In this document: one piece after another, positions 576-7,373 of the stretch
Layout of the letters: each line of letters opens with the position of its first letter
Numbering within the stretch: the first letter of the stretch is position 1
Virus record (IMG/VR): IMGVR_UViG_2671180360_000012
DNA length: 7,989 bases
Direction: 5' to 3' (one strand)
From: a virus
Lineage: Duplodnaviria > Heunggongvirae > Uroviricota > Caudoviricetes
Position numbers and translations under genes: made by a program
The notes under the pieces: model-generated
The model's input: only the letters and a program-made list of their open reading frames with translations
Told to the model about the DNA's origin: nothing
The model's database searches: none

Positions 576-1610
576 GTGACCGTGAGAGCACTACTGACCC
601 CTGAAATTGCCCCGCGTATGGGGATCGTATTGTTCAGGCCAGGTTCAGAGCTGATGCCCCTGTTTATGCAGGGGCGTGTCCTGCTGGAGCCTGAGCCGGA
701 ACGTTATTCATCTTTCGCCAGTGGTGCCGTTCCGGCGGCATCACAACCGCTGGCGGATGATCCTGCCGTTCCGGCGGCATCACAACCGCTGGCGGATGAT
801 CCTGCCGTTCGGGCCGTGTTCCGCAATGAGGCAGTGATCCGTCGTGCTGGTGGCGTGGAATGTCTTGAAAGCTGGTTACTTCGTGAAAAAGGCTGCCAGT
901 GGCCTCATTCCGACTGGCACAGCGAGAACATGACCACAATGCGACACGCTCCGGGTGCAATCCGTCTGTGCTGGCACTGCGATAACCAGCTGCGCGATCA
1001 GTTCACGGAACGGCTGGAATCAATGGCAACGGATAACTGTGCCCGCTGGGTGTTGTCTGTTGTGCGTCGGGATCTCGGTTTTGATGACAGTCACGTTGTG
1101 ACAATGCCGGAACTGTGCTGGTGGCTGATTCGTAATGATCTGGCGGATGCCTTACCGGAAAGTGCAGCCCGTAAGGCACTGAGATTACCGAAGCCTGTTG
1201 TGCCGTCTGTTACCCGGGAAAGTGACCTTGTGCCTTCGGTTCCTGCCACCAGCATCATCCAGGATAAGGCGAAAAAGGTGCTGGCGCTGAAAGTGGATCC
1301 GGAGTCGCCGGAGTCTTTTATGTTACGCCCAAAACGTCGCCGCTGGGTTAATGAAAAGTACACGCGCTGGGTTAAGACACAGCCGTGTGCATGTTGTGGA
1401 AAGCCAGCTGATGATCCGCATCATCTGATAGGCCATGGTCAGGGTGGAATGGGTACAAAAGCGCATGACCTTTTTGTGCTGCCTTTGTGCAGAAAACACC
1501 ACGACGAACTGCATGCGGATACCGTGGCATTTGAAGAGAAGTATGGCTCCCAGCTGGAGCTGATATTTCGTTTTATCGATCGCGCACTGGCGATTGGTGT
1601 GCTGGCCTGA
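576..1610 (+). CDS. DUF968-family phage protein (YdfU-like) with a C-terminal HNH-like Cys/His motif
   Basis: A 344-codon ORF sits directly between the antirepressor-like gene and Q. The C-terminus carries [44 protein letters not shown], and there is a second CxxC (CWHCDNQL) mid-protein. The start is uncertain: GTG at 576, GTG at 582 (GAGGTG 4 nt upstream), or ATG at 615 are all possible. It contains a 2x39-bp tandem repeat. Confidence 0.7.
725..802 (+). repeat. Perfect 39-bp direct tandem duplication (2 copies) inside the DUF968 CDS, in-frame, encoding a repeated 13-aa unit
   Basis: Positions 725-763 and 764-802 are identical (tgccgttccggcggcatcacaaccgctggcggatgatcc). The next 8 nt (803-810) start a third copy and then diverge. 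The protein reads ...[31 protein letters not shown]... Confidence 0.95.
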
Positions 1611-1627: not shown

Positions 1628-2011
1628 ATGCGTGATATTCAGATGGTTCTTGAACGTTGGGGAGCGTGGGTGGCTAATAATCATGAAGATGTGACCTGGT
1701 CGTCCATTGCCGCCGGTTTTAAGGGATTAATTCCTTCAAAAGTAAAATCTCGCCCGCAATGTTGTGACGATGACGCGATGATTATTTGCGGGTGCATGGC
1801 CCGTCTGAAAAAGAACAACAGCGATTTGCACGATTTATTAGTAGATTATTATGTAGTCGGTATGACATTCATGTCACTGGCAGGTAAGCATTGCTGCTCT
1901 GATGGTTATATCGGGAAAAGGTTACAGAAGGCTGAGGGCATAATTGAAGGGATGTTAATGGCATTAGATATCCGGTTAGAGATGGATATCGTTGTTAATA
2001 ACTCTAATTAA
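1628..2011 (+). CDS. quuD: Late-gene antitermination protein Q (phage 21 / DLP12 QuuD type, 127 aa)
   Basis: ATG at 1628 is preceded by GGAG at 1617-1620 (7-nt spacing); the TTG at 1613 in the ORF track is less likely. The 127-aa product ([39 protein letters not shown]...[12 protein letters not shown]...) matches my recollection of the small cysteine-rich 21-type Q. Its position immediately upstream of the lysis region is canonical. Confidence 0.85.
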
Positions 2012-2032
2012 TATGCCAATTGTTTACTGAAA

Positions 2033-2062
2033 GTTATTAAAAATGGGGCGTTGCAACGCCCC
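2033..2062 (-). terminator. Candidate rho-independent terminator of the porin gene (palindrome GGGGCGTTGCAACGCCCC followed by a T-run on the - strand)
   Basis: There is a 7-bp GC-rich stem (2045-2051 with 2056-2062) and a 4-nt loop. On the - strand it is followed by ATTTTTAATAA; on the + strand it is flanked by A-runs instead, so it is unidirectional for leftward transcripts. It lies about 140 nt downstream of the porin stop. Confidence 0.55.
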
Positions 2063-2150
2063 CAAAAATAAAGGGTAATATATAACAGAAGGTTTATATA
2101 GTTAGAAGCAAGGTTGTGCTCCTAAAGGAAGTGGCTTGAGGGAGTCACTT
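2063..2150 (+). promoter_or_regulatory. Expected location of the late promoter P_R' and Q-utilisation (qut) site
   Basis: This is positional inference: in lambdoid phages P_R' and qut lie immediately downstream of Q, and this is the only non-coding DNA between Q and the + strand terminator hairpin. Several TATA-rich hexamers are present (TAATAT/TATATA around 2076-2100) but I could not pair one with a convincing -35. Confidence 0.3.
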
Positions 2151-2190
2151 ATATGTTGGGGAGGCAACGCCTCCCGCAACATATCTTTTT
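2151..2190 (+). terminator. Candidate tR'-like intrinsic terminator on the + strand (15-bp bulged hairpin followed by CTTTTT)
   Basis: The 5' arm is 2151-2165 (atatgttggggaggc), the loop is AAC at 2166-2168, and the 3' arm is 2169-2184 with one bulged G at 2176. It is followed by c + TTTTT at 2185-2190. On the - strand the hairpin is preceded by an A-run and not followed by U's, so it is + strand specific. It lies 11-50 nt beyond the porin stop codon. Confidence 0.4.
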
Positions 2191-2200
2191 CGTAATCAGA

Positions 2201-3298
2201 TTAGAACTGGTAAACCAGACCTACAGCAACGATGTCATCAGTGCTTACACCGAGTGCTTTAGTGAAGTCATTTTTGTCAAGCAGGTTGATTTTGTAATCA
2301 ACGAAAGTAGACATATTTTTGTTGAAGTAATAGGTTGCACCTACATCAACATATTTGACTAAGTCCTGATCGCCCCATACTCCAAGATCCTTACCTTTAG
2401 ATTGCAGGTAAGCAACGGACGGACGCAGACCGAAATCGAACTGATATTGTGCAACAGCTTCGAAGTTTTGAGCTTTATTAGCAACGAAGTGATCAGCAAA
2501 TACAGTCATATTCTGGGTTTCAGAATAGGTAGTGGCCAGGTAAATGTTGTTAGCGTCATATTTCAGACCTGCGGCCCAAACTTCTGCATTTTTACCGGAA
2601 GCAAATACTTCAGGAAGAACTTTCCCTGCATTAACTTGAGTGTCGGTACGATCAGATTTCGCATAAGTTGCACCGATACCGAATCCTTCGTATTCATAGG
2701 TAGCAGAGAAACCGAAGCCATCACCGTTACCTTCGGTGTAGTTATCGAAATCGCTACGATCGTTTTTGCCTTGGTACTGAGCAGCAAAGTTCAGACCATC
2801 AACCAGACCAAAGAAGTCGTTGTTACGATAGGTTGCAACACCAGTGGTGCGACCAGTCATGAACACATCTGTTTGGGTCCAGGTATCGCCACCGAATTCT
2901 GGCAGAACGTCAGTCCACGCACCGATGTCGTATGCTACACCGTAGTTACGGCCGTAATCGATTGAGCCGTAGTCACCGAATTTCAGGCCTGCAAATGCAA
3001 GACGGGTTTTGTCTTTGGAGGAACCTTGAGATTCAGCGCGGTTGCCTTTGAATTCATATTCCCACTGACCGAAACCAGTCAGCTGATCGTTGATTTGGGT
3101 TTCGCCTTTGAAGCCCAGACGAACATAAGTAGTATCACCATCATCTGCATCGTTAGAGGAAAAGTAGTGCTTGGCATTAACTTTCCCGTACAGATCCAGC
3201 TTGTTACTGTCTTTATTATAAATTTCAGCTGCCTGAGCAGACATCGCCATCAGTACTGATGCAGCTACAGCAGAAATTGCCACTGTTAATTTTTTCAT
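2201..3298 (-). CDS. nmpC: Outer-membrane general porin of the OmpC/OmpF family, phage-encoded Lc/NmpC type (365 aa), intact
   Basis: The product begins with a classic porin signal peptide ([23 protein letters not shown]|AEIYNKD...), has the conserved porin N-terminal motifs ([31 protein letters not shown]) and a C-terminal Phe (GLVYQF). The sequence matches my recollection of NmpC/Lc. The ORF is full-length with no internal interruption. Confidence 0.9.
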
Positions 3299-3886
3299 CG
3301 TGAGCCCTTTTTTTTGAACTATTATTAAAAAATGATGTCACTGCGCGATAAATATTCATCTAATCAATGTGATTATTTCAAGATGTAAGTTTTAGTTTCT
3401 CATTTAATTTGTGAAGTAGATCTCTATTTTTATCTGAACTTTTTCTATCGAAACCTATTTATGGCTCTTATTTGAACAAAAATAAATCTATTAGCTAATT
3501 TATATTAATGGCTGTTATTTATGGTGGTTCTATAATTCGTCTGTTTAATTTAAACCGGCTAAAAATAACACTGGAAATTATTTATTGGTTATTTGTTGAG
3601 GTTTTCTTATGTATTTGTTGTGATGTTTTGAACACTCGGTAGCATTCTCATAAATATCATTCAGTGGTTTACGTACGTAAAAAATTGGTTATGCTGTTAA
3701 GAGTGGTTACTTCGTCACACAGCTTAAACCCGCCGTCGAGCTGGTTTTTCCATTTTTTGAGTCTCGATATTAGCTGATAACTCAATACCTGAGTTATTCA
3801 CTGACTCGGAGTCAGTTACGTTTCTGCTTTTTTGCGATACGTTGTATTCCCTCAATTTACACCCGCTTTGTCTGCGAGGTGGGGTT
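3299..3886. promoter_or_regulatory. AT-rich intergenic region holding the porin promoter and 5' leader (- strand) and the region upstream of the holin
   Basis: This ~590-bp stretch is conspicuously AT-rich compared with the flanking coding DNA and has no ORF of 60 aa or more. The porin ATG at 3298 is preceded on the - strand by AAAAAAAAGGGCTCACG. An imperfect ~20-bp direct repeat is at 3455-3474 and 3502-3521 (16 of 20 matches), and TTATTTAT(T)GG-like motifs recur. Confidence 0.5.
3801..3833 (+). terminator. Weak terminator-like hairpin with T-run about 55 nt upstream of the holin start
   Basis: The stem is ctgact (3801-3806) paired with agtcag (3810-3815), with a cgg loop, followed by acgTTTCTGCTTTTTT (3818-3833). 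It is not followed by a T-run on the - strand. Confidence 0.3.
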
Positions 3887-4102
3887 ATGAAATTCATGGA
3901 TAAGTTAACAACTGGAGTCGCCTATGGCACCTCAGCAGGTAGTGCCGGTTACTGGTTTTTACAGCTGCTCGATAAAGTCACTCCCTCACAGTGGGCAGCA
4001 ATAGGTGTGCTGGGTAGCCTGGTATTTGGCCTGCTGACGTACCTGACAAACCTTTATTTCAAGATTAAAGAAGATAAGCGCAAGGCTGCGAGAGGTGAAT
4101 AA
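3887..4102 (+). CDS. essD: Class II holin, phage 21 S21-type pinholin (71 aa) with a dual-start motif
   Basis: ATG at 3887 is preceded by GAGGTGGGG. The product is [71 protein letters not shown], with two transmembrane segments and a charged C-terminus. Met1 and Met4 (MKFM) mirror the S21 71/68 antiholin/holin dual start. The TAA stop overlaps the endolysin ATG (TAATG). The upstream ATG at 3842 lacks support. Confidence 0.9.
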
Positions 4103-6596: not shown

Positions 6597-6605
6597 CAAA
6601 CTACT
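6597..6605. repeat. IS1 target-site duplication, left copy (CAAACTACT)
   Basis: These 9 bp immediately flank the IS1 end at 6606 and are identical to 7374-7382. Confidence 0.9.
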
Positions 6606-6620
6606 GGTAATGACTCCAAC

Positions 6621-7124
6621 TTATTGATAGTGTTTTATGTTCAGATAATGCCCGATGACTTTGTCATGCAGCTCCACCGATTTTGAGAACGACAGCGACT
6701 TCCGTCCCAGCCGTGCCAGGTGCTGCCTCAGATTCAGGTTATGCCGCTCAATTCGCTGCGTATATCGCTTGCTGATTACGTGCAGCTTTCCCTTCAGGCG
6801 GGATTCATACAGCGGCCAGCCATCCGTCATCCATATCACCACGTCAAAGGGTGGCAGCAGGCTCATAAGACGCCCCAGCGTCGCCATAGTGCGTTCACCG
6901 AATACGTGCGCAACAACCGTCTTCCGGAGCCTGTCATACGCGTAAAACAGCCAGCGCTGGCGCGATTTAGCCCCGACATAGCCCCACTGTTCGTCCATTT
7001 CCGCGCAGACGATGACGTCACTGCCCGGCTGTATGCGCGAGGTTACCGACTGCGGCCTGAGTTTTTTAAGTGACGTAAAATCGTGTTGAGGCCAACGCCC
7101 ATAATGCGGGCAGTTGCCCGGCAT
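6621..7124 (-). CDS. insB: IS1 insB' reading frame (transposase catalytic part, expressed as the InsAB' fusion by -1 frameshifting)
   Basis: The 167-codon frame ([29 protein letters not shown]...) matches my recollection of IS1 InsB. Its stop codon lies inside the terminal inverted repeat. Confidence 0.9.
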
Positions 7125-7318
7125 CCAACGCCATTCATGGCCATATCAATGATTTTCTGGTGCGTACCGGGTTGAGAAGCGGTGTAAGTGAACTGCAGTT
7201 GCCATGTTTTACGGCAGTGAGAGCAGAGATAGCGCTGATGTCCGGCGATGCTTTTGCCGTTACGCACCACCCCGTCAGTAGCTGAACAGGAGGGACAGCT
7301 GATAGAAACAGAAGCCAC
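7043..7318 (-). CDS. insA: IS1 InsA (transposition inhibitor / DNA-binding protein, 91 aa)
   Basis: The product is [91 protein letters not shown], with a zinc-finger CxxC...CxxC and a helix-turn-helix. It overlaps the insB' frame at the frameshift window. Confidence 0.95.
7061..7067 (-). other. IS1 programmed -1 ribosomal frameshift heptamer (AAAAAAC on the coding strand)
   Basis: The + strand reads gtttttt at 7061-7067, which is AAAAAAC on the - strand. It lies in the insA/insB' overlap. Confidence 0.8.
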
Positions 7319-7373
7319 TGGAGCACCTCAAAAACACCATCATACACTAAATCAGTAAGTTGGCAGCATCACC

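Follow-up and report, generated by a model that had tools for sequence, protein, structure and literature searches.

The interval between quuD and porin in a DLP12-like Escherichia coli prophage: the ipeX locus as the probable 3′ end of a reverse cassette upstream of the predicted late promoter

Which transcripts end in the short interval between the Q antiterminator gene and the porin gene of a DLP12-like prophage, and does the late promoter lie there as well? We asked this question for IMG/VR virus record IMGVR_UViG_2671180360_000012, a stretch of 7,989 nt (the window), in which positions 2012–2200 separate quuD, a Q gene on the plus strand, from a porin gene on the minus strand. At 100% identity, the window matched a lambdoid prophage carried by E. 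coli O111:H2 strain 12A. It was colinear with the cryptic prophage DLP12 of K-12 and carried quuD, porin and essD in the DLP12-like order, and we treat it as a DLP12-like E. coli prophage. An interpretation made earlier from the letters alone (the sequence-only reading) had seen two hairpins of opposite polarity in the interval. It took the first for the porin terminator and the second for a tR′-like terminator, and it placed the late promoter PR′, qut and tR′ together inside the porin 3′ untranslated region (UTR), the region of the IpeX RNA. Taken jointly, our results are probably best explained if the interval is the 3′ end of a reverse porin cassette, a moron, that lies between quuD and its cognate late promoter.

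Folding of both strands recovered both hairpins where they had been proposed, and their opposite polarity was upheld. The fold of the 189-nt interval surpassed all 200 dinucleotide shuffles on either strand (z = −3.9 on the plus strand and −5.7 on the minus strand). Hairpin 1 (2045–2062; GGGGCGT-TGCA-ACGCCCC) has 7 bp, of which 6 are G-C, a loop of 4 nt and a folding free energy (ΔG) of −12.5 kcal/mol. A U-tract directly 3′ of its stem was found on the minus strand only, where the tail ATTTTTAATAA scored −3.46, while the plus strand tail CAAAAATAAAG scored −1.53; the T-run on the minus strand alone was thereby confirmed. A consensus terminator scan reported hairpin 1 and omitted hairpin 2, and in a tail and fold scan no other minus strand terminator was detected between the porin stop codon and hairpin 1. 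The stem was essentially constant across loci, with TGCA, TGAG or TGAA as the loop, and the minus strand tail ATTTTTAA was constant except in one of approx. 80 loci. Hairpin 1 as the predicted terminator of the porin/IpeX transcript fits the anatomy, and the earlier assignment is supported by the U-tract, by the conserved tail and by its position as the sole minus strand terminator in the UTR. The 3′-end supplements of Adams 2021 (eLife 2021) contained no entry for ipeX, nmpC, quuD or essD, and every transcript end given here is inferred from sequence and homology.

Hairpin 2 (2151–2184) has a stem of 15 bp with a bulged G2176 and the loop AAC, and its ΔG was −20.8 kcal/mol on the plus strand and −22.2 kcal/mol on the minus strand. 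Here the better tail was found on the plus strand (CTTTTTCG; score −3.46, or −4.0 with 2183 as the last position of the stem), and the minus strand tail AAGTGACTCC scored −1.7, in agreement with the T-run claimed for the plus strand alone. The hairpin starts 17 nt past the porin stop codon on the minus strand and lies, as had been claimed, inside the porin 3′ UTR. A plus strand terminator at this place is plausible from fold and tail. The identity with tR′ did not hold, because the predicted PR′ lies downstream of hairpin 2. The two hairpins had also been said to share a core, and the octamer GCAACGCC is indeed present in both (2053–2060 and 2164–2171); its significance was lost, because the octamer takes in loop bases that differ between loci, and the shared core appears to be an incidental coincidence of two G+C-rich stems. 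An open reading frame (ORF) of 69 codons at 2153–2362 on the plus strand has its ATG within hairpin 2 and overlaps the porin 3′ end in antisense. The PA-2 record of 1986 lists it as ORF1 and the phage 434 record as a hypothetical gene; it is probably not a gene.

Over all 189 nt, the interval shared 96.8% identity with both K-12 DLP12 and the PA-2 lc record J02580. IpeX is a 167-nt DLP12 RNA made within the porin transcript (Castillo-Keller et al. 2006, as relayed in PMC12197685 and PMC5069750). In the same accounts it is reported to be processed from a longer porin transcript, and this UTR of the prophage porin is reported as a repressor of the host porins OmpC and OmpF. From 2200, the base after the porin stop codon, to 2034, where the hairpin 1 U-tract ends, the window spans exactly 167 nt. 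Judged by alignment and length, the porin 3′ UTR of the window is the already described ipeX locus, as the sequence-only reading had suggested, and the reading of hairpin 1 and the UTR restates a known locus; the novel part of that interpretation is the part that failed. As in DLP12 and PA-2, the IpeX counterpart is bounded by the porin stop codon and the terminator and lies immediately 3′ of the Q gene. It differs in a few point changes including T2145, and the porin is intact in the window while the K-12 copy is split by an insertion sequence, IS5. A Rfam scan of the whole window (E ≤ 1) returned no IpeX family and one chance snoRNA match, and in the RefSeq records nothing was annotated at the interval.

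The interval was found in 2501 of 5426 complete E. coli genomes (46%) and in 36 phage records. Among 31 distinct variants, hairpin changes seen in more than one variant were confined to the loops and the bulge, and stem changes consisted of a few singletons; for hairpin 2 the only changes above singleton frequency concerned loop nucleotide 2168 (C, A or T) and the bulge (G, A or deleted). Over the IpeX fold, 17 of 98 paired and 28 of 92 unpaired columns were variable, a mild depletion in stems. In a covariation test of this fold across the 31 variants no two-sided compensatory change was detected except one bulge-to-pair event, in strain AR_0077, where a T insertion in the 5′ arm together with a change of the bulge from G to A gives hairpin 2 an extra T-A pair. 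No statistical claim of covariation is made, because the divergence among the 31 variants is too small. Positions 2064–2110 were nearly constant. The T at 2145 was shared by the window and one other of 81 loci (a variant group of two), and the other 30 variants have C; on the minus strand it turns a G-C pair into an A-C mismatch, which weakens a small hairpin at 2131–2148.

Where would late transcription then start? A search with the spacer between porin and holin matched positions 3667–3749 to the Q end and annotated PR′ of Shiga toxin (Stx) phages of the 933W/H-19B type, with 76–77% identity over 83 nt. The alignment keeps the −35, the −10, the TAAGAGTGGTTAC block and the hairpin with its T-run, and the −10 is TATGCT in the window and TATCAT in the Stx phages. 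The local alignment score of this PR′ module was 64, compared to 17.9 ± 2.4 for shuffles. QuuD itself shares 80% amino acid identity with the Q of Stx phages and has a distant relative in the solved Q21. The PR′ start and tR′ 3′ end of strain Sakai have been mapped by differential RNA sequencing (dRNA-seq) and Term-seq and are 258 nt apart (PMC7547250). In the homologous phage sequence, the position 258 nt before the tR′ U-tract is the second A of TAAGAG, 7 bases past the −10. By homology, the start in the window is predicted at approx. A3702, and essD begins 185 nt 3′ of it. The late promoter of the window most likely lies beyond the porin, 1.6 kb from the interval, as a PR′ of the 933W/H-19B type.

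A location of the late promoter, qut and tR′ within the porin 3′ UTR was not supported, as the core TAAGAGTGGTTAC was absent from the interval, no similarity above chance to a PR′–tR′ segment was found there and PR′ is predicted at 3668–3710. The sequence-only reading had itself named a PR′ upstream of the holin as a finding that would speak against it, and this is the position indicated by homology to the dRNA-seq-mapped Stx PR′. The module at 3668–3755 resembles the PR′–tR′ cassette of the Stx phages (933W, H-19B and Sakai Sp5/Sp15, the source of the StxS RNA; PMC7547250) in its −35, −10, start region and proximal hairpin. The promoter of the Stx phages overlaps with the stop codon of Q, whereas in the window a reverse porin cassette of 1.66 kb stands between Q and promoter. 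Stx and window leaders are unrelated beyond approx. +50, and the interval 2012–2200 is outside the Stx-type cassette.

Two further features of the module were observed. A change from G to T at 3742 leaves the promoter-proximal hairpin with a ΔG of −2.4 in the window compared to −11.5 in K-12; the mutated form was present in 38 of 78 related loci, so that about half of the population may have lost an early terminator or pause hairpin. Ahead of the invariant core (3668–3689, with equivalents in loci L091–L210) a dyad with an A-run was seen as ACGTACGT, ACGATCGT, GCGTACGC, GCGGTCCGC or GGAATTCC. Read by eye, the dyad appears to vary by Q subgroup, and it could be a candidate Q-binding element.

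An exact-pattern scan for the core TAAGAGTGGTTAC returned at least 120 viral contigs. Among the matches listed, a Q homologue was detected in 100 loci, always on the strand of the core and 5′ of it, with 39–100% amino acid identity to QuuD. Of the other 20 listed loci, the core is preceded by less than 1.6 kb of sequence in 19 and by 3.9 kb with no Q match in one (L147). Again among the matches listed, the Q stop codon and the core were 5–40 nt apart in the adjacent cases, including the Stx phages, and 626–2461 nt apart otherwise; each long gap held one of over 20 unrelated cassettes, which with few exceptions are on the reverse strand. The porin cassette occupies 1668–1687 bp of this gap. Across loci the porin alleles were 76–100% identical, and in the 80 DLP12-like loci the module was 97–100% identical while porins diverged to 76–88%. 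The interval occurred only with the porin cassette, other Q homologues being followed by unrelated sequence.

By this distribution, the porin and both hairpins are one putative inserted cassette (approx. 2012–3667), and the junction between a Q gene of the PF06530 type and PR′ is, judged from gene order, an insertion hotspot (at least 120 contigs, L091–L210; cassettes of 626–2461 bp). Morons are autonomous promoter-gene-terminator cassettes that lie between phage genes, in the concept of Hendrix and Juhala. The porin is moron-like in its opposite strand, in its own terminator (hairpin 1), in the junction that it shares with many unrelated cassettes and in its upstream CRP sites, which are annotated in the PA-2 record. 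It differs from a typical moron in an unusually long 3′ UTR with trans-acting activity (IpeX) and in a second hairpin of opposite polarity. The repeated GTTTAC (2021 and 3667) was considered as an insertion-junction repeat and dropped, since no such repeat was found in other cassettes. Some cassettes of the hotspot matched anti-phage defence: KwaB of Kiwa (L100; the cassette of L178 looks alike), PDC-S20, a KAP-like NTPase (L109), and PDC-M68A, an HNH protein (L137).

We propose the following course of transcription. Minus strand porin transcripts would pass hairpin 2, which lacks a U-tract in this orientation, and end at hairpin 1, and the resulting 3′ UTR of approx. 165 nt would be the IpeX RNA, with hairpin 2 as its 5′-proximal protective stem-loop and hairpin 1 as its terminator. 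On the plus strand, readthrough of quuD from the early rightward operon would ignore hairpin 1 and, unless antiterminated, stop at hairpin 2, 10–15 nt before the porin stop codon, a stop that would protect the porin gene against antisense transcription. Late transcription would start past the porin, at the PR′ of the 933W/H-19B type (−35 at 3668, −10 at 3690, start approx. 3702). Because it starts downstream of the porin, Q-modified polymerase would never meet hairpin 2, and hairpin 2 would act on transcripts that read through Q and not on Q-modified late transcripts.

The layout of the sequence-only reading was weighed against this proposal in a concrete form, with a promoter at approx. 2051–2081, the sigma-dependent pause element TATAGT at 2097–2102 and hairpin 2 as tR′; late transcription would then run antisense through the porin to the holin. 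It is the layout of lambda tR′/6S RNA and of the Q21 loading site, namely promoter, −10-like early pause element, terminator and late genes, and several observations speak for it and against our interpretation. A promoter-like pair, TTGCAA-19-TAATAT (2051–2081, plus strand), does exist in the interval; the −10-like TATAGT follows approx. 9–14 nt past its predicted start, and a strong plus strand terminator, hairpin 2, approx. 100 nt downstream. In a crude matrix scan this candidate (score 6.8, rank 54 of 79,540) scored only slightly below the PR′ module (rank 35), although the scan was non-discriminating, and a consensus promoter scan found none in the interval. The layout also exists in this Q family. 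Twelve phages of the ev087 type (Lambda_ev087 and 11 relatives; L004 2894–3049, L211) carry a QuuD-like Q (87% nucleotide identity) and are without the conserved PR′ core between Q and holin. Directly after Q they have TTGCTG-17-TAATGT, the −10-like TAGAAT and a homologue of the Stx tR′ terminator, and a lipocalin gene (blc) in reverse orientation comes next. The near constancy of 2064–2110 fits such a promoter but is equally explained by membership in IpeX. The spacer of the pair is 19 bp, and its −35 lies within the loop of hairpin 1, where two of its six bases differ between loci. When the interval was aligned with the window's own PR′ module, the Stx PR′–tR′ and the ev087 segment, the scores were 13–19 for shuffle means of 15–18, a fraction of 0.16–0.90 of the shuffles matched or exceeded them, and the positive controls scored 43 and 64. 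A similarity of 2064–2096 to the PR′ module (AAAAA...TAAnAG..GGTT) had been considered and was dropped, as it was at chance level by Smith-Waterman alignment with shuffles. The Q-binding element of Q21 is a direct repeat of TGAGCA between −35 and −10 (PMC6606751; bioRxiv 10.1101/651190); in the interval no direct repeat of this kind was evident, and no homology to the lambda or Q21 loading site was found. Finally, the core TAAGAGTGGTTAC is missing from 2012–2200, and the interval travels with the porin while the module at 3668–3755 travels with the Q family. We consider a late promoter in the interval very improbable. The start region of the ev087-type phages would be a different one for the same Q family.

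The insulating function of hairpin 2 is inferred from sequence and homology. Hairpin 2 might work only in minus strand RNA, as a stabilising or processing stem-loop, with the plus strand T-run incidental, which we hold to be possible but rather unlikely. This alternative draws on the T-run itself, which is T5 in 45 of 79 loci and T4A in 34, compared to a hairpin 1 tail that is constant except in one locus, and which is reduced to TTT in the AR_0077 variant, although the stem there is retained and even improved by the bulge-to-pair change. A T-run lost in some loci while the stem is retained means that the stem may serve minus strand RNA and not plus strand termination, and this counts against the insulator that we propose. 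Consistent with such a role are the slightly greater stability of hairpin 2 as minus strand RNA and the processing of IpeX from a longer porin transcript, as told in the accounts above, since a 5′ stem-loop would protect the product. Conversely, working intrinsic terminators include hairpins of −20 kcal/mol with a C and U4–5 behind them, and the tail of hairpin 2 falls within this range. In many other reverse cassettes at the Q–PR′ junction a hairpin that scores as a plus strand or two-way terminator stands right after the Q stop codon, which points to a recurring need to stop readthrough and favours a real insulating role for hairpin 2. A further alternative concerns the crossed order of the two unidirectional terminators, by which the 3′ UTRs of the Q strand and of the porin would overlap by approx. 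157 complementary nt (2036–2192). The crossing could be a regulatory device in which antisense pairing couples the lysogen-expressed porin/IpeX to the lytic activator Q. The geometry follows from the polarities of hairpins 1 and 2, and most other cassettes have a single hairpin after Q and not two crossed unidirectional terminators. Yet hardly any transcription of the Q strand is expected in a repressed prophage, after induction antitermination of the N type would probably pass hairpin 2, and a long 3′ UTR selected for trans action as IpeX could alone give the crossed layout, so that we judge this device improbable. If it were real, it would be an antisense link between a lysogenic-conversion gene and a late-gene activator: in lysogens, plentiful porin/IpeX RNA could dampen leaky Q expression, and Q strand transcripts made after induction could titrate IpeX and relieve the repression of OmpC and OmpF.

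Under the cassette arrangement that we prefer, phages of the DLP12/PA-2 type most likely keep their late promoter beyond the porin. The porin would be a cassette between Q and PR′, unlike stx, which lies downstream of tR′ in the Stx phages. With the porin inserted between Q and PR′, the expression of porin and IpeX would be uncoupled from Q-dependent late transcription, and late transcripts would not cross the porin gene in antisense.

The arrangement also bears on a published reporter that was used for the Q- and sigma-E-controlled expression of the lysis genes. From the lysis operon, Pasqua et al. cloned the "regulatory region, −121 to +650", for which they cite Rueggeberg 2015. The Pasqua primers map to approx. 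3226 and approx. 4009 in the window, so the fragment includes the PR′ module and omits the Q–porin interval, and the mapping of −121 to +650 puts the proposed sigma-E start near 3347. Read by eye, a sigma-E-like GAACTA-16-TCACT is present at 3317–3343, a short distance upstream of the porin start codon, in divergent orientation, and approx. 350 nt upstream of the sigma-70-type PR′ module. QuuD supplied in trans is reported to have activated such a reporter and to have bound the fragment. If this is true, the Q target would lie within 3226–4009. The published DLP12 lysis reporter gains a second reading, with a conserved sigma-70-type PR′ approx. 350 nt downstream of the proposed sigma-E start.

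Table 1. Coordinates of genes and of observed or predicted RNA and promoter features in the window.
Feature	Position	Strand	Basis or remark
DUF968 gene	576–1610	+	
quuD, Q antiterminator of the PF06530 / Q21 fold family	1628–2011	+	Pfam E = 1e-53; RefSeq name quuD
Porin 3′ UTR, IpeX RNA counterpart	2034–2200	−	Porin stop codon to hairpin 1 U-tract
Hairpin 1, candidate intrinsic terminator of porin/IpeX transcript	2045–2062; U-tract 2044–2034	−	Fold and tail scan
Hairpin 2	2151–2184	both	Minus strand: 5′-proximal stem-loop of IpeX region; plus strand: terminator-like hairpin
Hairpin 2 U-tract, C then T5	2185–2190	+	Tail score −3.46; gives plus strand terminator polarity
Porin, nmpC/lc type	2201–3298	−	Pfam Porin_1, E = 2e-156; annotated porin
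Predicted late promoter PR′	3668–3710	+	−35 TTTACG 3668–3673; −10 TATGCT 3690–3695; homology to Stx PR′
Conserved core TAAGAGTGGTTAC	3698–3710	+	Invariant block; once in window
Predicted PR′ start	approx. A3702	+	By homology
Promoter-proximal hairpin and T-run of PR′ module	3726–3750	+	Alignment: conserved stem, variable loop
Second terminator-like hairpin ACTGACTCGGAGTCAGT with T-rich tail, late leader; candidate tR′	3800–3836	+	Fold and tail scan
essD, S21-type holin, first late/lysis gene	3887–4102	+	Pfam Phage_holin_2_1 and annotation
rrrD, rzpD, bor	3′ of essD		

Outside the cassette and its flanks two minor features were observed. An IS1 element with InsA and InsB domains on the minus strand (approx. 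6600–7370) is inserted 3′ of ybcW and is missing from the otherwise identical locus of strain 12A. Within the DUF968 gene a tandem repeat at 725–814 consists of 2.3 copies of a 39-bp unit with 98% matches, and it keeps the reading frame, because 39 bp correspond to 13 codons.

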